The notes beneath the pieces are model-generated. The model was not told where the DNA came from and ran no database searches. It saw nothing but the letters and a program-made list of their open reading frames with translations. The position numbers were made by a program, and so were the translations under genes. A stretch of DNA of 60,407 bases, the filler included, from Sphacelaria rigidula (Eukaryota), in the NCBI GenBank assembly GCA_964200075.2. It is 5 parts of 5 records of this genome, joined end to end, with 100 filler letters (N's around TTAATTAATTAA, not from the genome) between each part and the next. Parts side by side here need not be neighbours in the genome. Positions count along the whole stretch, not along the records: positions 24,206 to 36,206 come from CAXNAA020004247.1; 4 more parts are not named here. One strand, 5' to 3'. Of the stretch, positions 12,004-48,407 are shown in pieces (position 1 is the stretch's first letter; the number at the start of each line of letters is the position of its first letter).

Positions 12004-12103
12004 NNNNNNNNNNNNNNNNNNNNNNNNNNNNNNNNNNNNNNNNNNNNTTAATTAATTAANNNNNNNNNNNNNNNNNNNNNNNNNNNNNNNNNNNNNNNNN
12101 NNN
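12004..12103. other. Artificial contig linker (N-TTAATTAATTAA-N, 100 bp)
   Basis: N runs flank a 12-mer that gives stops in all six frames. Confidence 0.97.
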
Positions 12104-14167: not shown

Positions 14168-17100
14168 CATGCGGGAAGAGTTACGACCTCCCCAATACGG
14201 GGATAGGTACTCAGAGAGTGCATATCGCCCTTTTTTACACGAGGTATTTGGAATACGAGAAGCTTATTGAGCACGCTAAGGTGCCGTGCGGCATCAGGTG
14301 GTGACAATGGCTCAACAAGTGCCAACTCATGTACAGAGAGTGTTCGTTCGTTTGAAACATGATGAGAGCACTATCACCCGCCGTAATTGGTTGCGGCGAT
14401 CGAAAAGTATGCTGGGCATGCGGCGGGCGCCGAGGTAGATCTGATCCAAGCGTCCGCGGCCGTGGCGAAAGCTGTCGCCACGGATTCTCGGGGGAAAACG
14501 ATGTTGGAGCGGGTGGAGCCCATCTTGGCCAATTTGGAGAAGTACTCGGAGAATCACGGAAAATCCGAACGTGGAACTAGTATATCGTTCCCCCGATGGT
14601 GAGTTCATTCCCGGCAAGGCAGCAGTAATGACTAAGGCTTTGGTGGAGGGGTTGGCACCGGAAAAATTCAAGCAAGCGGTGCTTATCAAGTTGCAGCACC
14701 AAACAGACTGGAAGGCCGACCCATACCTGGTAATGAGCACCGTCGTGGCCGAGGCCAAGGAGTGGCAGAAAGTAGAGGTGTTCGGTCAGTCGTCCCCCTC
14801 TTCGCCGAGATCTTTGCGCAACCATGGCTCGGAATCGGCCGGTAGCACCGCGAGTATTACTCGTCACCGCTGTGGCCAGGTCGGCCAGTACACGCGCGAT
14901 TGCCCAACGTCTTTCGGTGGCGAGTCTGGGCAGTCTAGTGCCGCGCGGCATCAGTATGGTCAGCACAAGGGCATAATACGAGGTAATCATGGTGGCGGCG
15001 GCGGATCCTCCGGCAATGGAGGATCGCAAGCGAGCCCTCAGCAGCAGAACCAGCAGCAGCAGAACCAGCAGCAGCAGGGGCAGTGGCGTCAGCATGGGCC
15101 TGGCTCTGGGTCCGGCGCCACCGTACGTGCTGCTGCCCCGCAACGGGCGGTGCAGGTGGCCCCGACTTCTACAGAGTCGAACACTGCGCCGGCGCCGGTG
15201 GTGGCGCCGGCGGCGACGCCGGCAGCAGCGCCAGGCGCGACGCCTGTTGATGTGTTGGTCGGAGGTTCGCCAAATTACTTGTTTGCTGGCTGGGGGACGT
15301 ACCTGCCGGCGGTGCCGCCGTCTTCGCCTGCGCAGCTTGCGCAGCCGTGGCGTCAAGTGGGATTAGCGGCGTATCGGTCGGCGGAAGAAACTCCTGGGGA
15401 GCTTGCCGACAGATACACTCCTTCGGAGTTATGTCTTCCGAATCAACGGCAGCATGGAGCCATTGTGGTTCGGTCTGTATTGGATTCTGGCGCCCATGTC
15501 TCTAGTCTGCCGGTGCAGATGGTTGAGATACTGAAGCGTTAACTCCCGGGTGTGCCGCTGCGCATCCTACTTTCGCTCGGGGCGCGGCAGGCAGTCACCG
15601 CGTCGGGTCAACATGTTGCCGTCACGGAGCGTACTGTTCCGTTGCAGCTAGCCTTCAAGACTGCTTGGGGGCTGGCGCCGTTGCCTCCGATCTCGTTTGC
15701 GATCATGCCAGGGTCAGATGGCCTTGTTCTTCTGGGGCTGTCGACGCTACAGGGTCTAGGAGTCGACCCGTATGAGCGGTTGAAGGACTCCATCAAGACG
15801 CGGATGTCTCCGCCTAGTACGCATGTGGAGACGTCCGCCTTTTTGGGCAATCGTCGCGTGAGCTTGTCGGTGGATGCTTTTGAGGAGGCTGGGGAGCAAA
15901 TGACTGAGGAGCGGGATGCGGCGGTCGAACGCTTAGTGAAGCGCGGCCCGGGCATGTTCATGGACCCGGCGGAAGAGGAGTCCGCTCGGAAGGTCGCGCT
16001 GGAGGAGAGCGTAACGAATGCTGTGGCGAAAGGTCTCAACATTCCCAAAGCGGAACGCCTGCGCGGCATCTTGCATCGCCGCGTCAACGCGTTTCGTCCT
16101 GCGCTGCGGGGTGATCCCCCTGCGGGCGTGGAGCCCATGCATGTTCAGCTGAAACCTGAGGCATCCGCGGTGAAGGCAAAGCCGCGGTGGTATAAGCCGG
16201 TGAAGTCGAGCTGGTTGGCGTCCTGCATGGCGGCTCTTTTGGCGCTTGGGTTGGTAGTCTGGAACCTGCTGGCGGTATGGTCCAGTCCAGCGATGGCGGT
16301 TCCCAAGAAAGACTCGTTTCGCCTGGCAAGCGACTACAAGGCCGTAAATGATCAGGTTGAGAAGTCGCCGGGTGTGATGCCGAATCAAGAGTCGGACATG
16401 CGTGATCTCTTGAGTGCTCGTATTTTTGGAAAGTTGCACCTCCTCCAAGGTTATTGGCAGATGCCGTTGGCGGAGGAGGCGCAGGAGATTTTCACAACCA
16501 CGACCCCGCTAGGCTTGTTCACCTCGAAGCGAGTGCCGCAAGGCGTGTTGAATGCCACGGCATACTTTCAAGGTATCATGACAAAACTGCTTGTCGGCTT
16601 GAAATGCAAGTTATGGGTGGATGATGTGTTTTGTTTTTCGCGGACACGGAAGACGAACTTTTAGACACGGTTGATGTTATCTTGACTCGTTTAGAGGGTG
16701 TTGATTTGTTTGCGGCGGCGCACAAACTCACTTTATTCGCTAGTGAACTCGTATGGTGTGAAAACGTGTGCTCACACGGATGCGTATCTCATGACCCTGT
16801 CAGATTGCAAGTTTTGTCTGACATGCGGCGCCCAGAGACGGCCGCAGAATTCATGCAATTCCTGCAGGCCGCGAATTGGCTGCGTGCCTCGTTGCCCCGT
16901 ATGGTAGAAACCATAGCTCCCTTGCGTTTTTTCCTCGAAGAACTCACGGCGGGTGCTGCGAGGTGGACGAAGCGTGGTGCAAAAAACCGCGCTATTCCGC
17001 CTGCATCGTGGACGGAGGGCAGGTTGCAGGCATGGGCGGCAACGAAGGATCTGTTCGCTCACGCCGTGACGCTGTTCCATCCTCATCCTGATCGTCAGGT

Positions 17101-18903
17101 GCTAATGTTTCCGGATGCACCTGAGTGTCAATGGGGTAGTTTCGTTACGCAGGTGCCTAAAGCGAAAATGCAAAGACGCCTGCCGGCTGAGGACATGACG
17201 CATGGTTCTTGGCCAGTACCGTTACTCGATTTGTCATATTTCGGGTGACCGTGACGCGTGGGGTGACTTGCTTTCGCGTTGGGTGAATATTCCGGCTTTG
17301 CCTGTGCGCGTTGTGGCTGTGTATGGTCCGTGTGAACCTGATGACTCGATGCCGTCCAAATCTATTGTCCGCCAAGCGCAACGAAAAGACCATGGGGCCG
17401 AAGATGCGGATGTGCGATCTTTCGAGTCGAACGTTGGTACTGCTATCTTGGACAACGAAGGCCTGTTTCGTGTGCATGTGCGTGGCCGGAACGTTTTGTG
17501 GATTCCGAGTTGTGACAGGGAGTTGCAGGTACGTCTGATGATTTGCGCGCAACGCCGGGCATCGTGATGTGGCTGCGACGCTTATGCGCTTACAAGAGTT
17601 TTGTGTCTGGCAGGGGATAGAAACTCATGTGCGCGAATTTGTCCGTCAGTGTTCGCTGTGCTGACTCAAGGGCGGGTGATGTGGTGATATGGTTCCCCGC
17701 CCGCTCGGCGAAACGGTCCACGGGGCTACGCCGGACGAAGTCGTTCATTTTGACTTCTTGTACGAGGGCGAGAGTGGCCCACTAGCTTCCCAAGGTTTGT
17801 CGGAATATGCTGGGTTTCGGTACATTTTGGTAATCATGGATGATTTAAGTAATTTTGTGGCTCCGGAATCAGTAGCAGTGTGTACTGCCGAATCGACCGC
17901 TGCATCTTTGTTGTATTAGTGCAAAACTTTGTAAGTGCCGTGTGTGTAGGTGAGTAATACTACCACGCATTTCAAGAATGCGATCTTGGCCCGATTGCGA
18001 GAGGCGTTGCTCGTTGATAATCAGTTTGCGGTAGCGTATTCTCCGTCGTCTAAGGACACGTGCGAACGCATGGTCAAGGAAGTAGTTCATGCTCTTCGCT
18101 CTATTCTTCTTGAGCAGCGTAGAGCGGTTTCCAAGTGGGTGGAAGTTTTGCCGGCGATGCAATGAGCGCTCAATACAGCGTATCGTTATCGGTACGATAC
18201 GACGCCGTACAACGTGATGTTTGTTCGTGCCCCTTGGACGTCTTTCTCGGTGCTGACATCTTCGTCGGCGGGAGAATGGAAGTGTGATGTTCTGGACGAG
18301 GTTCAAATTAAGAGTGCATTGCAAGGAGTCTTGGAATTGCAAGAACATCTCCACGTTCAAGTGCAGGAACGTGTTGCCGCTAAACGTGCGCGTAAACGTG
18401 AGAGGTCCTCGTCGGGGCTGGAATTTGCCGGATTTTGAGGTAGGCGACTATGTCTCGTATGCACGCTTGCGTCGTCCGGGTGTTACACCCAAGTTGATGG
18501 CGACGTGGACTGGTCCATGGAGAGTGGTTGGTGCTCACCATCCGCACGTGTTCGAGATTCAGAACATTTTTTCGGGTCGTGTTCAGATCGCCCATGTAGT
18601 TCGTTTGCGTTTTTATGCAGACGCGCAGCTTAATGTTACGGCTGACGTTAAGGACGTGTTCCAGCATGCTTTCAGCCAGGGCAATTTCAGATGGCTGGTA
18701 TTGTCCGAGTGGCAGAAGCAGATGATCGTTCGTTGATCGTGTTGGTCGACTGGGTTGGTTTCGAAGTTGAGGAGCGTATGTGGGAGCCTTTCAAGGACAT
18801 TTTTGACGCCGCATCGGAATTTCTCACGAAGGAGTTGCGTAAACTGCGCGTGACTCGTGCCGTTGTTGCTCGCATTACGAGTGAGTTTGGTATTCATCTG
18901 TGA
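14168..18903 (+). pseudogene. gag-pol pseudogene of the gypsy element (stops and frameshifts)
   Basis: Degenerate zinc knuckle RHRCGQVGQYTRDC (~14860-14905), protease VLDSGA (~15478-15495), RT motifs LASDYKAVN, LLQGYWQMPL, RVPQG, WVDD (16320-16626), RNase H start FPDA (~17110), integrase VVHFDFLY/YILVIMDDLS and WTGPWRV, and chromodomain VLVDWVGFEVEERMWEP (18740-18790). The 5' boundary is approximate. Confidence 0.92.
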
Positions 18904-24105: not shown

Positions 24106-24205
24106 NNNNNNNNNNNNNNNNNNNNNNNNNNNNNNNNNNNNNNNNNNNNTTAATTAATTAANNNNNNNNNNNNNNNNNNNNNNNNNNNNNNNNNNNNNNN
24201 NNNNN
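24106..24205. other. Artificial contig linker
   Basis: Same N/TTAATTAATTAA spacer. Confidence 0.97.
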
Positions 24206-27200
24206 CACCCAACAACTGGCCCACCCCCCCCCCCCCCTATTGTAGGATGACTCTAGCATCCACCGTGACTCTACTCATTCACGTCTACACGGCAAGATTC
24301 GACCTGTCACGGCTATAGGGCAAGCATGGCGTTGTCTCATCACACGGTGAAATCAGAGCCTACAGGAAAATTGAACAGCTGCGTTACACAGCGAACTCGG
24401 GCGTACAGCAGTTATGGCATCCAAGAATACAGCAAAGCGGTGTAGAGAATCATTTCATCTTCGCATCAACCGTGATGTGGTGTATAAAGCAAGCACCAAG
24501 TTGCCTCATCTCACAGCTCCTTGCACGATCGGCTTTCACATTTCGATCCTGTGCACTCACGCGTGAGGGCAAGTTTTTATTTCAAGGCGTGAGGGAGATC
24601 ACACCGCTTCAACGTTTTCATTGCTGTGTGCGAAATACTTGAACTGCCACGGCGTATAAAGCAAGCACAGCATAGCATGGTCTTTTACGTGGTCGCAGGT
24701 GATACCCCTCCTAGCTTCATGTAACATCGTGTTTCCCCGTATACGCCTTCGTGTGCTTCACTCATTATCTGTTAGGCGGTTCGCCTCTCGGTTACAACGT
24801 GTCAAGGCAAAAGTAAGGTTGGATAGCAGCAGATCGATGATAGTACTTTGGGCGGGGGATTGCACTTTAAAACCCGCTATCCTGTTGAATGCATATACAT
24901 ATGGAACCCCTGTCATGCAACATGCACCCCAATCTTCACTTTGCAGAAATCAAAGCATATGGCGACAGCGGCGTCAGATGTCAACGAGTCCAACGTTACT
25001 CCGTCCAGCGGCAACGCCTAGAGCTTAACCTTGAAGCAGTGGGGTTGAACAACGAATAATCACGTTGGGAGCAAGCAAATGCCGGACGACTGTTGGAAGT
25101 ACGCAAGCATTGGTGCAAATATTTGTGCAATGCAAAAGTCAGTAGTAGTACAGTACAGAACAACACAGTACAGTCGCTTATCATCAGGTGTCCACTCGCA
25201 ACACACAGATTTTCATGTCGCGAAAAACTCAAAATACTCCGCATTTATATGGTGAAATGTACGGGAAGTGCTTAGCTTTGGCTCAACAGTCAAGTGCATC
25301 GATATTGAGCAACATCAGGTAATATCTCGCCGAACAGTAAGGCACGATTGATATAGGATAATGGTGAGGGATAACTGGTAGCATTCGAATGATAACAGTA
25401 CGCCGCATCAGGTTACAGGAAGATGGGTATCAGCCTGATCCATGCACTGTGCAAGCGTTGTGCAAATTCATGTTTGGTGACAGGATGCACACAGCAGATG
25501 ACCTGCTGTAATACAAGTTCAACAGCAAGAGACAGTTCATCAACAGCTTGATTTAACCAGTTTAGGTGGAGGATATCTCTGATTTTTAATAGGGTACAGC
25601 AAGCTCAAATTTAAGCAGGCATCACTGAAACGACATCCTTCCGCACCATGCGATATAGACATACATGCGTGCGCTTATTGCAGACACATCGTAGTCGTGG
25701 ATAAATGCCGTGGACACGCGGCTTCACGTAGATAAGAATAACCCTGCACGCATGCAGTAACTTGATTCAAAGCGACAGCATATGCGCATCAGTTCGGTAT
25801 GTCTCGGGCTGCACAATCAATCCCACGTTTCACAGTAGTGACGGTTCACGAATTTAAATCTAACCCACATGCAGCATGGGCCAAGCGTCATCCCCACGTC
25901 ATCCAGTAAACCGTGGTTTCACTCCAAGCGGGTAGCCTGGTGTTATCAGCATCAGCCATCATTTCCTTTTCCTCCATAGGCTACAGCTTGTTATGGCAGG
26001 GCAAGTTGACTGATGACATCGCCAAGTTCTTCAAACACATGAATCCGAATGATGGACGCAGTGCGGTCAGTTGAACTTTCAAATCCTCCGCAGTTATACT
26101 ATAAAACGTATAGACTATACCGATCTTTCATGTTGACTGTACAGTATGCAACGTGAACACAACCTGAACAGCTGTAGCCGCTGCTACGGGCGCACCCCAA
26201 ACATCAAACTCAGTCGTTTGGCAATAACCGCTGCGTTAACGCTGTGGACACGCCTCTTCAGGTGACACAGCCGACAGCGCGTTCAAGCGCACACGGGATT
26301 GACCGAGGACCAGTTCGTTCATTCGTCATTCTCAGACAGCAAAATTCGTCATCACATGCGGGGTTCTCGTTTGAAGCAAACAACGAACTTTCATATATGA
26401 GGACCGAAACATCACGGTGGCTGATGCGTTGTTGAAGGAGCGCATTTAGGAAAATTGCAAGAGGAGTGATCAACATGTCACAGATGACAACAGTCGACCC
26501 AATAGTCCCGGTTGAAAGCACGCTGATACAAACAGAATAGTGTTGTTCATAGTTGTTGTTGACAACGTATATCACTGCGATGCGAGCCGATGACCTAGAG
26601 CGAACAAACATATAGTTAAGTCAAATCATGCGTAGACAAATGCGTGATGATTAATATATATCATGTTGAATACGCAGGAATACATCGTACTATCCTTATC
26701 CCCCACGCCACGCCACGATCCGTAACAATATCTACTCTACACCCTAAAATATATCCACACATAGTCATGGTACAAGGCTCGAAAAGCAGAAATCCTCCAT
26801 CCAACGAACGCTCCGGGAACGCTATCGGTTGTGCAGATGGACAGTCGATGCGCAGCAGATAAGACAATCAACCATACAACGTTTATCACATCGACTGCTA
26901 TTCAGCACATCGATTTCGATCTTCCAACAAACTGGCGTCTCTCAACGGCTATATCAAAAATTCATATCCAAACGTTGTTTTACTTCCACACATGTATACT
27001 AGAGAGATCCCGAGGCCAGCCCTTGCAAATACCATGACAATAGCCCACTCTGATACGTGAGTTCGCAGAAGCTCGAAGAGCTTCGAAGACTCGCGTTACA
27101 CCACAATCTCCCACACCACAAAAAAGGGGAAGACTGAACACGACAAAGAGCAATGGAGACTTACCCTAGCCTGGCAAACAACCCTTCAGCCTCGGCGCAT

Positions 27201-28092
27201 GACCCACGCGGTTGCGCTATCATCCAGTCTCTGGTACACACAAAGGAGGCGCCTAGCCTGACAACTACGGCCTGCAGTATTTGCACGTGACCCTGGTCAA
27301 CTTTTCAACCCACCAACATAAAACACAACCTACGCTCCGCCGATGAGATCAGCGCGTGACTCGGACAGGCTTACGGCCGAACACTCTGGAAAGCCACGCA
27401 ACCCAGGCTGTTCCTTAGGCAACGGGAAGTGTAGTATTCACGGTCGAGCGGCATCAAGGGGGAACGCAATACTCGCGGTACGATTTCACGTTAATCAGTT
27501 TCGAGGGGCCCGCCAAGGCATAACGATCAAGAAGACATCACTTTCAACATTTAGGTGGTGCATGAAAAAACTCATACCGGTGAAAAGACCGACGAGATAG
27601 CTCGCGGTGTAGGGTCTAGGAGCGTCAGCAGTGGCCGATTGAAGCTCCAGGATCGTGCAGCGATAACCGCCGCGCGACGCGTACTGAGGAAGCCCGGGGG
27701 ATCGGTCATTCGTTTTCGCACACGCCGAGAAACAAAATCCACAGTTATCACACCCCAAAACACGTGACAATTTACTGAGGCTGAAGTCCCATGTATTATG
27801 TACTTTGGCCTAGTCGCCCTCGAGAAGGCAGCCTCAGTACACCTTTGTCCTGTTATGCTCCCACGAACAAAGGCTCAAGCCGTATGTGCCAGGTTGCAAT
27901 GCAGAGCTGGATGCAACAAATCAATACAATACAAACCACAGTAGCAGTTCAAGCCCAGATGTTCACAGAAATAGGTTATCTCCTTGTAGGTTACAATACG
28001 AATCAGAGCCAGTAGTTCCTCCCAACTACAAAGCATACTGGTAAGGACTCACTTGGAAATCAGAGCAACGGCGGCAAAAGCTGATGCTATCC

Positions 28093-28411
28093 TGAAGTGT
28101 TGCAATCAGCTTCGTATTGCGAGATCATCATCTTTTTGTGTTGTTTGTGTTTGTGCATGTGTGTGTTTGTCGTTATTTTGTTGTTCTTGCTGTTGTTGTT
28201 TGTTGTATGTTGCTGGTGTTGTTGTTTTTGTTGTTTTTGTTGTTATCGTTGCTTCCTTTCCTTCCTTTCCTTCCTTTCTGGGGCCGTTACTTCTTTTTCT
28301 GTTCATTTATTTCTTTTTTCTATTACTATTCTGTTCTTTTTTTGCTGCTCCTAACGACGGACGGGATTGTTGCAGTCAACTAATGTGAGATAATCAATCA
28401 ATCAATCAATC
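28093..28411 (+). mobile_element. SINE-like / non-LTR 3' end with (AATC)n tail
   Basis: agtgttgcaatcagc, then a GT/T-rich body, then tgttgcagtcaactaatgtgagataatcaatcaatc. A homologous reverse copy lies at 50011-50310. Confidence 0.75.
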
Positions 28412-29229
28412 AGTGTATAGACACACATCTGATAAGTGCATGTAGAGCGGAAACATGTCCCCCAAGTGCGTGCAAACACGGGTAGAAGCAATCATCTGTG
28501 CGCAGGTACTCCGTATGTTTTCATAAAAGTGCTCGAACGGAGCAAAAAGGACACTGTATTGTTGTATAAAGCCGAAGAAAAAACACACACGAAAATATGG
28601 ATGCGCGGTGGAGCACGGCATTAGTTCGCTGCTGCTGGAGAGAGCCGTGCACGAGCGATACCTCGGCATGGTGGTCGGAGGGCGGGTTCCTCACACCAAG
28701 AACCATCATCGGGGTGAAGCGATGCTGTGCTGTCGGGGCATCGTGAAAACAATCATGCAAAATCATGTACAGCACATAAACTGTACTGTATATTGCTCCG
28801 CAAGGACGGAGGGTGACACTGGGGCACAACACTGAAAACCTCTATTTGGTGCATACATGGGTCATCCCCGCGAGCGTAGACTAACTGTGAGCTCAAGGGG
28901 TAAGGCCAGTGCTAATGTAGAGATTGCAGAGTGCACATCGTGAACAGAGTTGCGCAGTGGTGGATGTGATACAAGTAAACAGCAGTCTCCAGTTTGTTGT
29001 CAGCATTTGCTTAACTCTACAGTGCAGGTTGATCACTGAACTAGGCAAACAACAAAACTTCGGTCAACGATTACGAAATTTCACTTCTTCGTGTGGGACC
29101 TTTCATTCTACTTATTATTTGACTGCCATTCATTTGTGCACGAGTTCGTTCATATTCATTTACTACAGGTCGATCCCTTCACATCTGTTCATAAAGTACT
29201 CAAGCTCCAAACCGTCTCACCGTTAACAT

Positions 29230-29617
29230 TGTAACAATCGTAAGCTCACAGCACGTGGGGAGACAGTCCAACGCAGTACAGTACACGTCGATCATCAGGA
29301 TATCCTTGTTCACAGCTTCAGGTGATTCGATTTCTTTTGTTCCTCGGTGGTGTTGATAGCCAGAGTCTTCTCGAGAAGTTCTGAACATCAGGGCATCATA
29401 GCATTGCACCGATTCTTAGAAAGAATCGGATTCAACCAGATGTAAGAGGTATGTTTATGTACTCCGTATCTTGACGGATTACTTAACATCCTCACCCCTG
29501 ACCGCAGGTACTAGCCAGTTCCCGCGATCAGCCCTCCGGGCCCGTATCTTTGTTCCGAATCAACGGCCCATCATTGTACTGTCCCCGTTCCACCACATCA
29601 CGCCGCGATCCGTAACA
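29230..29617 (-). repeat. Putative 3' LTR (~388 bp)
   Basis: On the minus strand it begins TGTTACGG directly after the polypurine tract and ends ...TGTTACA. The partner LTR is not in the contig, so the distal end is inferred. Confidence 0.6.
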
Positions 29618-29889
29618 CCCCCCCTCAGTCCTAGGGTTGAAAACCCTGGGACTGACGTGATTCACACGATGGATTGCCGCGTTACCATGTCCCTCTTCCA
29701 AGTGCTCAGTGTCAGGGTGTAGCCGTCGATCTTGATAACCGTTCTGCCGGGTAAGACTACGTAGGGAATTTAAACACTGTGCAAGACGATCCTTTCCAGT
29801 CCGGAGGCGTCCTTGATCTTGTTGACTGCTCTACCGGGTTAGACCACGTAGGGAATTTAAACACCGTGCAGAACCATCCCTTCCCCCCA

Positions 29890-32800
29890 TTAATTAGATC
29901 CTGAAGTGGCTCTGGTACCCTGTTCCTTCACCGCATTTTTCCGTACCTCCGACGGCGTCATCTCTTCCCAATCCCCATCCTCATACTTGATACGGTAATA
30001 CAGCTGACGAAAGTCGAACACTTCCCCGTTGAACTCCTGCCGCTCACCTTGGTTGTCCACAAACTGTTTACGCATTCTGGTCCCTCGAGGAATGAGTCGC
30101 AAAGCTTCATCCCGAGCAAAATAATCTCTTTCCGCTCGAGATGGGTTAACGGATGGGCGCGGTTTGGTTTGCGGGTTATGTAGTTCCCACAAAGCATGAT
30201 ACACGTCCAACTGTAGCCCAGTGAAACTATCTGAAACTTCCTCCTCTGAAAGCCAGTGAGACTCGGTTCCGTCATGAAACAACCCCCGATAGGCTCACTC
30301 CCAAGACGATCCTGATCCTAACACCACCTTCCTGTCTGTCGATGCATACAGTTGCGGAACGGTCGTGATCTCCTCAGCTAACCCCAAATCAGCCCCCCAC
30401 GCTAACCGAGAGTATTCGTCGGGAAACGGATGCCGCAGCTGTTCAGAGCGCACATGAAATTTCTTCACATTGGCTGCCGAGACCGTCCATTCCCGTACCT
30501 TACGTCCTTGAACACTGACCTTAAGGCTGAGACCGGGTATCACCACTTGCTGTATTTTCCATGGCCCCGTCCACAAGTCGTGCACTAGTATAGCTGGCAC
30601 ATTTTCTTGTACGAGGGAGCTGTCGGACTCTTTCACCAACACTAGATCCCCTACCTGAGCTCGCGACCCTGCTGACTGGCGGGCCAACTCGACGTTTCGA
30701 CTTAACCGTACTTCCTCCCTTTTCTTGTGGCGTTGGGTCAACAGCTCGTGAACCTCCTTCAAGTTCTGGCGTTGTTGATCCACCGTGTTATTCAACGGTG
30801 GAGATTCCGCCTCGGGTGACACCGCGTCTAATTGGGTGCGTGGCTCGCGCCTGAAAAGCAGCTTTAATGGAGTCGGGCTGTTAGGCAATGCTGGATCGGG
30901 AGTAGTACGGTGAATCCACACAGCGGGGTCAACATACTCATCCCGCCTTTCCAGCCATTGCTTACAGAGCTCGGCTAAAACGTCGTGCAACCATCCACCG
31001 TACCGTTCCACCGCGCATTGACCGCGAAGGTGCTCTGCCGGACCATGATCCAGCTTCACCTTCATCCACCGGCATAAAAGGTTCACTACTTCCGACGTGA
31101 ACTCCCCCCCAGCGTCACTCCTTAGAAAATAGGGTACCCCGAACGTCAAGGAAAGCTTCAACAGACATTTCGCGACGGGCACCGTAAGCTTGGCAGCCAG
31201 GGGAGAAGCAAAGAGGAACTTGGTTGCTCGATCCACGATGATCAGCAAGTACCGGTTACCTGAGGCGGGAACTTGCTTCATGTCTGATATGTCCATCTCT
31301 AGCACTTCCCATGCCCGCAGGAATTGTGCGGGTCGCATCGCTAAGGTGTCACTGTTGGTACGCTTGCGCCGGCGATATCCATACGGTAACACGTATTTGC
31401 GGGTATCGGCAAAAAGACCAGACCATTCGTACCGTGCGTTGACTACCGCAGTCGTCCTCATTACCCCAGCATGCCCGTGCATAGTTTGTACCCACGCAAG
31501 CAGGCCTGGCACTAAGCTGCGTGGGATAGCTAGTTTGGCTGGCTCCTCAGGGGAGGTGTACCATAACAGATTATTCTCGTCTAGCACGTACGCATCCTGC
31601 CTCTTACCAACTCCTTCGTCCTTAGGCCTGCCGTTCAACCGATTCTTGATGGGTCCAAGACGGGAGTCCCGTTCTTGTAATAAAGCGAGTTGCGTGTTGT
31701 CCATCAAGATTGCCTTCGCCTGTTCGAGAACGGTTCTAGGGTTACCTGTACCTGATATCAGCTCCTCAGCTGAAGCCTCCCCCCCACCATAGTCTTGATC
31801 CGACTTATGTTCTGCCGCGGGAACCGACGAGCGAGTTACTGCGGCTCCCCAATTTTCTGGCGACTCATCCTCATGGGGCCACATCGCTGCGAGCGCACTT
31901 AGGCCTACGTCCTCGCTTCGAATCTGAGTCAAACTCAACAACCCTTTCGCTTCCAAGCTAGGTAAAACCGCCCCCATCATCCACGGATGAGCGAAATCAG
32001 CTACAATATCTGACATCGCATCGGTGTTTACCGTGGGTGGGGTCTCGTAATAGTCGAGGGTGGTCGCGACTTTCACAAAATCGACTCTTTCCAACTCTAC
32101 CGCTTCCTCCCATACCCCTGCATCCGCCTTGTGGGTTGTGAATTCCTGGCGCCGCGGTTTCCCTCTCGTCAGCCGAGGACGAGTTAACCTAGGCAACGGA
32201 TCCTCGAAACGGTGAGTAGCCTTACTTTGCCCTGTCGGCTCCAAGAAATGGGTGCCAGCCCGTCCCAATAGCTGACTCAGCGGGGGGCAGGTAACACCGT
32301 ATGCTTCCACCCGCTGTTTCCACGCGTGCAGTGTTTTTTCTCCTTGCTGATCCGCCTTCAGAGCGACCACATAGGTTCGTTTCTTCCGATACGGAGCGCC
32401 CACTTACACGGCGGAGACAGACGCCTGCTCGACGCAGCAGCCGGCTCCGCTCAGTAGCGGAGTCACGCTCTTCTCCCAGCCTGGAGAATGCACCTTTACA
32501 CCTGTACTCTCCAAGATCAGAGTTGTCGCTGACTCTGAGGAGAGGAACGACTCGACCAATTCTCGGGCACCTTCTACGGATTCCGACTCCCCCGCACCTT
32601 TATCAACGGGGGTAACCCTACTCGTATCTCCCACCAACACTTCTGGTTGTACCTCCTCCATCACGTTGTGGAAAGAAGGGCGCCCCGGAGTCGTACGTAC
32701 CAACCCGACTCCATTTCCAATCTGGTTCACCCTAACACAATCCAACGCTTTCCAATCTGCATCGGTGGCTGCCACTACCTCCAAGAACTTCTCCGCGGCC

Positions 32801-35800
32801 AGGATGTTGCCCCCGCCTTCACAATGGACAATCAACGCGGGAGGTCGTTACTTAACCGGTCTGGTCATATGGTCTTCGGAGTCAATGATAACTCCTTCCC
32901 CCGTTTCCGGTGGATACCAGGTGCTGACTTCCTCCAACGCCAATGTCATCAGGTCTGCGGATTCTTTCGGGTATTCAGCCTCCAGTTCCTTCAGCAACAT
33001 CCCATCTAGTTTGGGTCCTTGTGGTCCTCCCCCTCCGCCTGGTTCCGCTTCGGTATCATCGTCAGGGAATGACACGTCAATGTCACCTTCCCCTGGGCTG
33101 GCTCCCTTGCAGCCTAGACAGAGCGTCTGGCAACTGGTGTTCGCGTCCAGCTCGCACTTGAGGACCATATCATACTCCATCAATCTCAGTGGCCACCGGT
33201 GGAACTTAGGCGACAAGTTTTGGCTACGAAATAATCATGTCAACGCAATGCAATCCGTGACTAGCGTAAACTTTCGCCCACATAGGTATAATCTGAATCG
33301 CTCTACGGACCACAGAACAGCGACTACTTCCCTCTCTGATGCTGATCTTTCTTCATCCGCTCGTGACCATCTATGGCTGGCGTATTCGATGATCCATTAC
33401 CTCTCATCCGCCTCTTGGACCAGGGCGGCCCCTGCTGCGAACTCTGAAGCGTCTGAGTGTACCACGAATTGTTCATTCCAATCCGGGTACGCTAAGATCG
33501 GATACGACATCAGGGCGCTCTTGAAGTCGAGGTATGCCTGTTGCTGTTGGTCCCCCCACGGGATCTCCATCCTCCGGGCTCGCTTGGAGGCGAATCGTGG
33601 GTCCCTCAGCAAGTCTGTGAGTGGTGCCGCCATATTGCTGTACCCTTTTATGTACCTCCGCAGATATCCGGTCATACCTAAGAACGACATTGGCTCTTCT
33701 ACCCTCTGCGGCTCCCTCAACTGGGCGATCGCCTCGATCTTAGACTGAGAAGGTCGTATTCCCGACGCGTCGACCGTCATCCCCACGAAGTCCTGTTGCT
33801 GGGTTCACCACTGCGATTTCTGGAAATTCACAGTGAGGCCTGCCTTCAGCAGGCAATAGAGCACAACCCTCAACCCCGTCATGTGGCCGGCGAAAGTCGC
33901 GCTAGGGCACAAGATATCATCCAACCAATTCTTGACACCCTGCGCTGGCAACAACGCTTCGGATAATGTTCGGTGAAATGTCGCGGGTAATACCTTGAGT
34001 CCGAATCCACAACGCTAATATTGCCATAGGTGCCCCCGCGCGTCGCGAAAGACGGTGAGGTGTCGGTCCTCCTTCGCCACGTCCAACTGGAAAAATCCGC
34101 TCGCTAAGTCTACACTCGTGGAGTACTTGGATCCCGCCAGGCCACTATATATGGTCTGTATATCCCCCAAACCACCGCTATACGACTCGAGGAGTTCGTT
34201 TAGTCCACGATAATCCTGACACAACCGTAAACTACCGTCCTTCTTCCGCACCGTGACGCAAGCGGCTGCCCATGCGGACGTCGACGGCTCAATGACCCCC
34301 CGCTCCGCGAGTTTCTGAACTTCGTCTTGTATAGCTGTTGCTTGTTCTGGTGAGTACCGCCTGGTACCGGCAGCGAATGGCTTGCACCGGGGATCTTTCA
34401 GTCGTAGACGTAACGGTTCCCCACGCGCTGCTTTCACCTTGTTGGGGTCCACCGCAAAAAGTCCTGTTTCGTTGAAGTCTCCTAAGATGGACAACAGCTG
34501 TGTCTTCTGCGTCGGACCCAACTGACCCATGTTCGCTTCCGTGAGATCTACTCCTATGGCTTCAGGTGTGTCCTTTTCCTCCTCTTCCTGCGGTTCCGGC
34601 GGCGGATGAGGAGGGGCTGGCGCAGTCCCTCGATCCTCCAGCTTCGACTTGAGCGTGGTGCCCGAGTCGGACACGTACAGATTCTGCAACCGCTCGCGAT
34701 CTCGGACATTCACGGCCACAACTTTCGCCACTATAGTACCCTTCTTCACTAGGCGAGCATTCTTGGCCGTGTTGACCACCTTACATATCAACGGTAGCTG
34801 TGGATCCCACCACTGCACTCCCCTAGCTACCCCCATCTCAGCTTTCTCATCTAAATCGAACAACTTTCGAGGTTCGATCAACAGGAGTTGGCGTTCCTGC
34901 GGTGGAGGACCTCGCACGTAGCCTGGGACTAGCTCGCTAACGAAGCCTTCCAATCGCGCGTCCTCCGTCAGCCTTAGAGGCCACTGAAGTGTAGCGCCGT
35001 CTTCCCACGCCGCTCCAAGGCTCTTCCATACCTCATCCCATGCTGCCAGATCGCTCTCCCCAACACCCCCGTCGGGTCGTCGCTGAGCGCGCTCGGCTTG
35101 ACAGCATAGAAGAGATCCCACCCTGCCGAGTCTCCCTGTCCAGTGAAGTGATCGGCGTTAACGGCTCCGAGTTTTGGAGAGCCATTAGACACGAATCTCA
35201 CCCACGGGGCCTCCGGTGATGTCGGAATCCCGACTGACACTCAAAAGACAGCGTGCTCTTGTTCCTTCTACAGAAACTTGCCCCCAATATGAACCCATAC
35301 GGCAATCCATCGACCACCCTAACCAATACCTTCCTTATTCTATCCTTTGGATGGAACCGAATCGGAATTACCGCTGACCCCAAAACCTTTATCGGCGGCG
35401 TCCTGCTGTCACTAGGATTTGCTGCCCTCAGGAATCCTGCTCCTTGCTGCTGTAGTTTGCCCGATATGTTCCCCCAAATCACCAAAGACTTCCACCACTG
35501 CTTTGATGCATAGCTTCCCCCCCCCGCCCCGGTGTCCAGTAACGCCGTTACTGGTAAACCGAGGCTACTTTTACTGTGGTGCCAAACTCTACCTTGCACC
35601 CACAATTGCTGTGCATCAACCCTGTTCACTGCTGCTAATCTATCCGTCTCTATGCTGTCCCCCGGGGACTGCGGCCCCATGGCGCACCTTCATTCCTCGC
35701 CTGTGGCGTCGAAACGGTTGTCAGCGCACCCACCGTCTCGACGTCCTCCTCCGCGTCACTTCCTGGTTGGTCCAGGGTGTGGTCGAATCCCCGATCCCCG

Positions 35801-36000
35801 TACTGATTGTCGATAAGCCCGAACAAGTCCCCCAGTTGTAGGCTCGTGAGTTTATCTCTCCTTGTCCTGGGCTTTGCTTGGGACTGCTCCGGCTGCTTGT
35901 AATAGCCGAAGGGGATGCGGTCATTGTCATGGGAGAACTTGCAGCTCCCTGTGTCGTTGCTGCTGCAGTCCCGCCCATACGCATGGTTGAAGCACACGCC
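29890..36000 (-). pseudogene. gag-pol of the second gypsy element (several in-frame stops and frameshifts)
   Basis: ORFs 35650-35997, 35198-35680, 34015-35121, 33397-33786, 32848-33216, 32404-32835, 30295-32403 and 29890-30282 join into one polyprotein. Confidence 0.92.
31940..32845 (-). other. C5 cytosine-methyltransferase-like domain within pol
   Basis: Motifs in canonical order: I-II ALIVHCEGGGNILAAEKFLEVVAATDADWKALDCVRVN; IV region QPEVLVGDTSR (no PC); VI TTLILEST; VIII VSAV*VGAPYRKKRTYVVAL; IX-X-like LERVDFVKVATTLDYY...IVADFAHPWMMGAVL. Confidence 0.75.
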
Positions 36001-36206
36001 CAGAAGACGTATGGCGACGTCACGCTCCCCTTTGGGCGCCTCTTGGGCGGGAATGAAACCTGTCGCCGGTAATCGAGTGTACTCACACTCAATGTTGGAT
36101 ACACGCGGACAGGCCTGGATGAGTTGGAAATAGATATAGTGATTGGATTATGACATATGGGTGAAGGGCATATAAGAGATACAGTTCTGTTATTAAAGGT
36201 ATACCC

Positions 36207-36306
36207 NNNNNNNNNNNNNNNNNNNNNNNNNNNNNNNNNNNNNNNNNNNNTTAATTAATTAANNNNNNNNNNNNNNNNNNNNNNNNNNNNNNNNNNNNNN
36301 NNNNNN
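36207..36306. other. Artificial contig linker
   Basis: Same N/TTAATTAATTAA spacer. Confidence 0.97.
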
Positions 36307-48307: not shown

Positions 48308-48407
48308 NNNNNNNNNNNNNNNNNNNNNNNNNNNNNNNNNNNNNNNNNNNNTTAATTAATTAANNNNNNNNNNNNNNNNNNNNNNNNNNNNNNNNNNNNN
48401 NNNNNNN
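48308..48407. other. Artificial contig linker
   Basis: Same N/TTAATTAATTAA spacer. Confidence 0.97.

Follow-up and report, generated by a model that had tools for sequence, protein, structure and literature searches.

The window analyzed here is a stretch of 60,407 nucleotides, filler included, from the genome of Sphacelaria rigidula (GCA_964200075.2). It consists of five pieces of about 12 kb each, between which runs of N flank TTAATTAATTAA (at 12048, 24150, 36251, and 48352); the joints lie approximately at 12004-12103, 24106-24205, 36207-36306, and 48308-48407, and features are not traceable across them. The third piece (24206-36206) contains a degraded Ty3/gypsy retrotransposon on the minus strand, and in the pol gene of this element RNase H is separated from integrase by a region that includes a domain with the predicted fold of C5-cytosine methyltransferases (C5-MTases) from which the catalytic Pro-Cys is missing. 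The visible part of the element spans 29893..36206; on the 5′ side it is truncated where the piece ends (36206), and its 3′ long terminal repeat (LTR) is not delimited.

The degraded pol runs from 35157 to 29893, and all features of the element given below are on the minus strand. A single frame from 35157 to 30295 (translated as P0001, with X at stops) contains six internal in-frame stops. The reverse transcriptase (RT; RVT_1, PF00078, E 3.2e-13) was found at 33772..34251, corresponding to residues 303-462 of P0001, and RNase H at 33172..33558 (PF17919, E 8.2e-26, and PF17917, E 6.8e-24; residues 534-662). The zinc-binding Integrase_H2C2 domain (31390..31521; PF17921, E 7.3e-4; residues 1213-1256) and the integrase catalytic core (rve, 31039..31308; PF00665, E 1e-6; residues 1284-1373) scored 20.1 and 29.4 bits, below the curated cut-offs of 25.5 and 32.6, despite which zinc finger and core share 56% identity with P0158, an intact relative of 2024 amino acids. 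At the C-terminal end of pol, a Tudor domain (29941..30084; PF21743, PTM/DIR17-like Tudor, E 1.2e-7, 31.8 bits, with the cut-off at 27.2) lies in a 134-codon continuation of the pol frame past the TGA at 30295-30297. This domain was missed in the original prediction, which had been made from the sequence of the window, and Tudor domains of the PF21743 type are also present, at weaker scores, in P0007, P0156, and P0158. Upstream of RT, a protease-region remnant (35162..35392) matches residues 1-72 of P0158 (tblastn, 39% identity, E 1.2e-10) in frame -2, compared with -3 for the other parts of pol. A DTGA motif is visible by eye in this remnant, and neither the remnant nor three upstream open reading frames (ORFs) gave a Pfam match. 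P0158 is collinear with 35392-29935 in four blocks (tblastn). The domain matches together with this collinearity therefore give the pol order protease, RT, RNase H, insert, integrase, and Tudor, within which the RT, RNase H, integrase order of Ty3/gypsy (Metaviridae) pol is present.

RNase H and the integrase zinc finger are separated by 550 codons, counted between the Pfam matches; the original prediction had recognized this insert but had put it at about 450 codons. The C5-MTase-fold domain takes up about 328 of these codons (31897..32880, supported by the AlphaFold2 model, Foldseek, VIA-align, and hhalign), and the remaining ones form a linker and the usual pre-integrase stretch. The motif I-like glycine loop HCEGGG (32809..32826; family consensus GCGxGG) follows strand 1 of the model, and its core glycine columns hold Gly in 39/48 and 40/47 relatives. 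In the motif II-like VVAATDAD (32755..32778), an acidic residue ends strand 2 (model residues 34-40), and Asp is found in 46/59 and 54/60 relatives; the glycine loop and this Asp are the features legible in the sequence that bear on binding of S-adenosylmethionine. Motif IV, EVLVGDTSR (32617..32643), comes after strand 4 and has Thr-Ser in place of Pro-Cys. Motif VI, LILEST (32503..32520), stands at the end of strand 5, with the Glu of ENV kept and the Asn replaced, while motif VIII, GAPYRKKRTYVVA (32362..32400), precedes strand 7 and keeps its second Arg. Motifs I, II, IV, VI, VIII, and IX/X are thus in canonical order, with the register taken from the model strands. All motif strings that had been quoted for this insert, and the absence of Pro-Cys from it, were found as described, collinear and in place. 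Since the motifs fall at the canonical places of the modelled fold, the resemblance goes beyond chance.

Structure prediction gave the strongest link to the C5-MTases. The AlphaFold2 model of 31897-32880, calculated from an input alignment (A1) of 71 relatives from the phmmer search, had a predicted local distance difference test (pLDDT) score of 83.2 and a predicted template modelling (pTM) score of 0.84. In a Foldseek comparison with PDB, all 50 of the 50 matches listed were enzymes of the C5-cytosine methyltransferase fold, with E values from 1.4e-8; they include DNMT2, DNMT1, DNMT3A/B, DIM2, DNMT5, MET1, M.HaeIII, and one C5-carboxymethyltransferase. VIA-align gave Z 21.5 to M.HaeIII and 21.3 to M.HhaI over 262-266 aligned residues. 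Because the alignment takes in model residues 12-320 and almost the full length of both chains, the catalytic as well as the target-recognition subdomain is present in the model. Bacterial, Dnmt2, and DNMT1 chains rank within about 2 Z units of each other (21.5 to 19.7), and no kinship with Dnmt2 is shown by this ranking.

Sequence profiles pointed in the same direction by way of relatives. PF00145 (DNA_methylase) was matched at E<=1 by 8 of 72 alignment members, and P0028, kin to the studied domain at E 1.5e-17, was the only scanned relative above the gathering score of this family (23.2 bits vs 22). The PF00145 comparison suggested with the original prediction thus succeeded for a relative but not for the studied sequence itself. 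When the domain profile was compared by hhalign with a profile of seven C5-MTases (E. coli Dcm and six phage enzymes), a match at E 1.7e-4 was obtained over motifs VI-VIII, in which LILES was paired with LENV and GAPYRKKR with LPQHRER, and motif VIII GAPYRKKRTYVVA was aligned with LPQHRERIVLVGF of Dcm. A forced extension of this alignment, of low confidence, sets HCEGGG on FAGIGG. In a language-model search of ESM-Atlas with the domain of a Cladosiphon relative, 29 of 30 neighbours were PF00145 clusters. These clusters are of bacterial type, which may serve as a lead on the donor clade and nothing firmer.

Several results weigh against a methylase ancestry. The own sequence of the domain matched no Pfam family at E<=10 and no PDB chain by sequence, and the family profile found no DNA methyltransferase (DNMT) among PDB sequences; its sole match there, a nucleoside phosphorylase at E 1.8, was rejected. 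The hhalign comparison with Dcm alone was not significant (E 0.23 local, 0.26 global), the match to the seven C5-MTases had a probability of just 49%, and motifs I-IV were mapped through the forced, low-confidence extension. In addition, the alignment behind the model consists mostly of relatives that bear the motif IV cysteine, and the network already knows the DNMT fold. On the modelled fold in the main, the derivation of the domain from a C5-cytosine methyltransferase, as originally proposed for this Ty3/gypsy pol, can nevertheless be regarded as established.

The domain is widely shared. A phmmer search of 1.84 billion representatives returned 154 relatives at E<=1e-3, 56 of them at E<=1e-10. 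Two of these, P0051 and P0057, bacterial HYR-repeat surface proteins in which a 33-residue stretch was matched nine times, were treated as false positives and excluded from later alignments. An organism name was attached to 11 of 30 relatives, and all of these belong to Ectocarpus, Cladosiphon, or Nemacystus, three genera of the Ectocarpales. In four gene models of Cladosiphon okamuranus and Nemacystus decipiens the domain directly follows RT and RNase H, and a second search, with the Cladosiphon domain as query, yielded 12 long proteins, two of which came from Ectocarpus sp. CCAP 1310/34; P0155 and P0159 are Ectocarpus proteins of the family, and the Ectocarpus protein CAB1114741.1 is, like P0158, an example of an intact Cys-bearing pol. 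In P0158 an uninterrupted 2024-amino-acid ORF encodes RT, RNase H, a 700-residue gap with the domain, the integrase zinc finger and core, and Tudor. Four sequencing runs contained 2522, 2339, 2411, and 889 contig records on the element at a likeness of at least 80%, and with thousands of such records the family must be high-copy where it is present. These results show that a Tudor-bearing gypsy lineage present in Ectocarpus, Cladosiphon, and Nemacystus has long carried this domain by inheritance; an insertion private to this copy, which would have spoken against a capture, is not what was found.

The catalytic residues of the family were compared among the relatives that cover each position. 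At the Pro place of motif IV, Pro occurs in 0/69 relatives (Ala in 40, Thr in 13), so no relative has the Pro-Cys dipeptide of PCQ, about which the original prediction had asked. The next place holds Cys in 33/66 and Ser in 18/66, and the Gln place holds Arg in 50/62. In motif VI, the Glu of ENV is kept in 54/67, while its Asn is found in 1/67 only, with Cys in 32 and Ser in 19; the second Arg of motif VIII is present in 46/61. The family string G-N-A-C-R has the same spacing as G-F-P-C-Q, and the forced hhalign extension, again at low confidence, pairs the family Cys with the catalytic one. GNACRR or GDACRR, LEC, and GVPTxKxR are the strings of every long or intact pol (GNACRR, LEC, and GVPTGKxR in the intact ones), compared with GDTSR and LES in the studied copy, in which Glu and Arg are kept. 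The Cys is absent from the studied copy and from its nearest relatives, P0002, P0009, P0026, P0050, and P0055; this sublineage has Thr/Ala followed by Ser/Thr in motif IV, and in motif VI the Cys is mostly Ser. Because the nearest relatives share the loss, it was inherited in the sublineage and is no accident of a single copy. Judging from the aligned residues, loss of the presumed nucleophile is a trait of this sublineage and not of the capture, and the wider family is not cysteine-less. The proposal that the family had its catalytic loop replaced at several residues thus applies to the studied sublineage, but the wider family carries Ala-Cys-Arg in half of the relatives covered, including every long or intact pol.

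The residue at the motif IV Cys position and the one that follows the Glu of motif VI co-vary (alignment columns 184 and 222, corresponding to 32620-32622 and 32506-32508; rows from P0002-P0163): 20 of 53 rows are Cys-Cys, 10 are Ser-Ser, and 3 are Cys-Ser. RNA m5C (5-methylcytosine) methyltransferases use two cysteines, in motifs IV and VI. The co-varying cysteines may therefore hint at chemistry of that kind, or may express the kinship of the rows, and the Cys-Cys/Ser-Ser pattern may reflect one or two events only, the rows being kin. For a tree, the motif IV columns were excluded and the 33 rows with 105 or more of the 125 columns filled were used. In this tree the Cys-less rows form a starred clade of eight and a group around the studied copy, and five changes of the Cys fall on it; 13 of the 30 inner forks of the backbone are open, and two long rows are joined. 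A single clade of 11 Cys-less rows was not rejected by the approximately unbiased (AU) test (p-AU 0.262), and one loss of the Cys and several losses are consequently indistinguishable.

Constraint was approached through domain-wise protein identity and site-wise correlation, as proxies for the ratio of nonsynonymous to synonymous substitution rates (Ka/Ks). For the Cys-bearing proteins compared with P0158, identity in RT and in the methylase-like domain was 78% and 63% for P0157, 68% and 59% for P0155, 68% and 55% for P0156, and 58% and 54% for P0007. The linkers of these four pairs, where covered, reached just 41-53%, which indicates that the domain is kept nearly as well as RT in Cys-bearing elements. 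For the studied copy, identity to P0158 was 47% in RT, 54% in RNase H, and 56% in integrase, against 32% in the methylase-like domain and 25-31% in the linkers. Site conservation in the Cys-bearing rows was correlated with that in the rows of the Cys-less clade (Spearman r 0.21, p 0.02, 124 columns). Over both Cys-less groups the correlation was r 0.32 (p 8e-6, 191 columns), a value that may include time before the loss. Since the Cys-less relatives are all fragments, constraint after the loss is suggested and not shown. A conserved pseudo-enzyme in use by the element, as earlier proposed, is likewise no more than a candidate, with the domain of this lineage at linker-level divergence and site-wise constraint after the loss weakly supported.

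The studied copy itself is decayed. Seven in-frame stops interrupt the whole pol frame. Two TAA codons fall in the insert, as had been noticed before, one upstream of motif I (32848-32850, X770 of P0001) and one within the domain right before motif VIII (32404-32406, X918 of P0001), while the TGA at 30295-30297 cuts off the Tudor tail. After RNase H, a stretch at 33086..33153 is put out of frame by two compensating one-base indels, and an ADALSR-type motif is readable there in the other frame. Most other contigs have one base missing at 33086 and one inserted behind 33153, and all other contigs aligned at 30295-30297 and at the stop 33397-33399 have a sense codon. These two stops and the two indels are specific to this copy, since other copies differ there. 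The contig comparison covered the 40 places with the best support among 1374 that differ; these do not include the codon of motif IV or five of the seven stops. With seven stops and at least one uncompensated frameshift in its sequence, this copy is dead and would make no protein.

The surroundings of pol offered little on the ends of the element. No LTR pair was found within the 24206-36206 piece, which stops at 36206 before any 5′ LTR; a blastn comparison of the 5′ end of the piece with 24206-30000 gave no match, and a self-search of the whole stretch revealed no second copy of the element. Directly downstream of the pol stop there is a 70-base direct repeat (29728-29797 and 29815-29884, 83% alike, spacing 87). 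Summed contig depth over 29500-29947 and 35996-36206 exceeds the depth across most of the interior of pol by a factor of about 5 to 45. This is compatible with LTR or leader sequence and also with a different high-copy repeat; the two regions are unlike each other. On the plus strand, a 457-codon open frame (32375-33748, no start codon required), whose content matches nothing known, runs antisense to pol over RNase H and the start of the methylase-like domain and is probably a by-product of coding-strand composition. A second, unrelated retroelement lies on the plus strand at 14445-17248, with long ORFs that include a gag-like zinc knuckle as well as a protease-like stretch, and an RT (16131-16646) that shares 26% identity with the RT of the studied element.

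To our knowledge, Ectocarpus has little or no 5-methylcytosine (5mC), and the brown algae named here are commonly held to be without DNMT1 and DNMT3. The brown-algal relatives share the domain, and a mobile element has therefore kept a methylase-like part in algae thought poor in DNA methylation. The CpG observed/expected ratio was 0.97 in pol and 0.94-1.06 in the five pieces. Neither the element nor its host thus bears a mark of CpG methylation over long times, a result that is silent on non-CG or transient methylation. One DNMT2 gene per genome is usual. In Saccharina japonica, about 1.4% of cytosines were reported as methylated, mainly in the CHH context (H being A, C, or T), and six 'DNMT2' genes and no other DNMT were described (PMC6916402). 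Some of these genes may be retrotransposon-borne DNMT-like domains of the kind studied here.

DNMTs carried by transposable elements (TEs) have been reported previously. A DNMT in a gypsy pol was already published as KnitGypsy-Dnmt3 of Klebsormidium nitens (de Mendoza et al. 2018, PMC5890265), and the present family is similar to it in having a C5-MTase domain in the Pol polyprotein of a gypsy-type LTR retrotransposon with many copies. As described in the relevant passages of that paper, KnitGypsy-Dnmt3 carries a Dnmt3 whose key residues are conserved and whose Ka/Ks is less than 0.2, and its host, of the green lineage, has DNA methylation (PMC5890265), whereas the family here has degenerate motifs, no Pro-Cys, brown-algal named hosts, and a pol that ends in Tudor. 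The same passages report DNMTs in DIRS and long interspersed nuclear elements (LINEs) of Symbiodinium, SymbioDIRS-Dnmt3 as well as SymbioLINE-Dnmt, and describe TE-borne DNMTs as being under purifying selection, with conserved key residues and Ka/Ks below 0.2 in the Symbiodinium elements too, and some of them as active: SymbioDIRS-Dnmt3 methylated CG in yeast, and the tested SymbioLINE-Dnmt showed no de novo DNA methylation. Methylation of cDNA or RNA during retrotransposition was proposed by the authors (PMC5890265). The Symbiodinium elements likewise retained a retrotransposon-borne DNMT over long times, but they have DIRS or LINE backbones and canonical residues, and the family described here is known from sequence alone.

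A 2026 preprint described DNMT-bearing EpiLTRs of Cymbomonas and Euglena (bioRxiv 10.64898/2026.05.21.726589). These are also LTR elements that pair a DNMT with a chromatin-reader domain. According to the parts of the preprint consulted, their DNMT is sister to DNMT4 and is located at the 3′ end of pol in Cymbomonas, and an adenine methylase and a chromodomain accompany it in both hosts. The element studied here differs in the place of the domain, which sits between RNase H and integrase, in having Tudor as its reader, and in lacking an adenine methylase. The preprint lists the known cases, and the words brown alga, Ectocarpus, and stramenopile are absent from it (10.64898/2026.05.21.726589). 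Similarly, a 2025 survey of eukaryotic DNMTs mentions TE-embedded DNMT3, in the passages on this subject, only in streptophytes and dinoflagellates (PMC12344493). Gypsy-10_Ec32 of Ectocarpus, reported as the first TE with a Tudor domain (Genome Biol 2025, PMC12477816), is a counterpart on the brown-algal side, being a gypsy pol with a C-terminal Tudor. The main-text passages on it mention no methylase-like domain, the likeness is by description only, and a methyltransferase is mentioned in those passages for the Sola-1 DNA transposon alone (PMC12477816). No published TE-borne DNMT from a brown alga or stramenopile was found in the literature searched.

Taken together, we consider it reasonably likely that the studied copy is a dead member of a high-copy, Tudor-bearing gypsy family with a DNMT-derived domain, which in the lineage of this copy is a non-catalytic module if it is anything. 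In Cys-bearing elements the domain may still bind S-adenosylmethionine (SAM) and flip or methylate cytosine in the element's own cDNA or RNA. Cys-bearing members are probably SAM-binding and act on the element's cytosine, while real catalysis by them, argued by analogy, is a close call that leans slightly to the negative. Activity is conceivable without Pro before the Cys given the precedent of Pmt1 of S. pombe, which has PSCQ instead of PPCQ, is active on tRNA and not on DNA, and loses its activity in the C81A mutant, as reported in the passages on this enzyme (PMC3526270). Dnmt2/Pmt1 resembles the family in its C5-MTase fold and in a residue other than Pro before the catalytic Cys, and Dnmt2 structures are among the top fold matches; however, Pmt1 is a host gene in which Cys, ENV, and the remaining motifs are all preserved (PMC3526270). 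In the lineage of the studied copy, the covalent-catalysis route would be closed, and the domain, if acting at all, would be a non-catalytic nucleic-acid or SAM-binding module. Located directly upstream of the integrase-Tudor part, it may remain joined to integrase-Tudor after processing. In mammals, the host regulatory gene DNMT3L encodes a protein of DNMT fold that lacks catalytic residues and serves not as an enzyme but as a binding partner. The Cys-less domain has the same combination of DNMT fold and missing catalytic residues, and evidence for a partner enzyme was not found here. That the domain of this lineage is a weakly constrained binding module is, in our estimation, a little short of an even chance.

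Part of the evidence tells against a used pseudo-enzyme. A word-indexed search for long proteins with the insert found none among 8000 candidates, so no long pol of the own sublineage was recovered, and the Cys-less relatives that were found are fragments of at most about 264 amino acids. The domain of this lineage is no better kept than its linkers, the site correlation within the Cys-less clade is weak, the AU result leaves room for a single loss, and the lack of CpG depletion in pol and in the five pieces speaks against activity of the family on genomic CpG. The fragmentary state of the Cys-less relatives and the gap in identity between the domain and RT, RNase H, or integrase would both be expected of a relic, that is, of a domain that has been functionless since the cysteine loss and is tolerated, with hardly any or no constraint of its own, as a spacer separating RNase H from integrase. 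Scattered replacements of the Cys in otherwise Cys-bearing clades (P0037, P0048, P0122) also show decay of this codon. However, the open frame and the other motifs are still recognizable in two widely divergent Cys-less clades, the conserved sites of Cys-bearing rows are the better kept ones in the Cys-less clade, and a useless spacer of 330 codons would be expected to be deleted from a compact pol. We regard a relic as unlikely, though as the most serious competitor of a binding module.

Far less probable is a Cys-less domain that is still an enzyme and modifies nucleic acid through another nucleophile or a non-covalent route. In the studied copy the glycine loop is retained, as are the Asp of motif II, the Glu of motif VI, and the Arg of motif VIII, but the loss of the motif IV Cys abolishes the activity of Pmt1 (PMC3526270), and the second Cys, after the motif VI Glu, was lost along with the first. 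A chance resemblance, an assembly chimera, or a private insertion is the least credible explanation of all. It could draw on the missing direct match of the studied sequence in Pfam and PDB, and it is opposed by the 154 relatives, the thousands of family contig records in four runs, the shared location of the domain within pol, seen in gene models from three named genera and in the unbroken 2024-amino-acid ORF, and the Z score of 21.5 for the fold. A bolder combination would extend the binding-module reading: the Cys-bearing domain would be a long-conserved C5-MTase with an unusual two-cysteine site (Ala-Cys, Glu-Cys), active on the element's cDNA or RNA and an overlooked source of the low levels of non-CG 5mC reported for kelps, for which several 'DNMT2' genes were listed, and the sublineage of the studied copy would be in transition to a target-choosing or holding module for integrase-Tudor. 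The whole of this combination seems improbable to us.

Retrotransposon-borne DNMTs were previously described from dinoflagellates, a charophyte, and, in the parts of the 2026 preprint cited above, a prasinophyte and Euglena. The present case is set apart by its new host group, by the degeneration of its active site, and by Tudor on the same polyprotein, in a lineage that spans at least three genera of the Ectocarpales. Domains of this kind escape Pfam and may be missed in annotation or counted as host DNMT-like genes. The natural series from Cys-bearing to Cys-less forms of one domain may be useful for studying roles of the DNMT fold beyond methylation in retroelements. The presence of a Tudor reader and a methylase-like domain on one polyprotein suggests that chromatin reading is linked with nucleic-acid marking in these elements, and the family is a candidate source for any residual cytosine methylation in brown algae.

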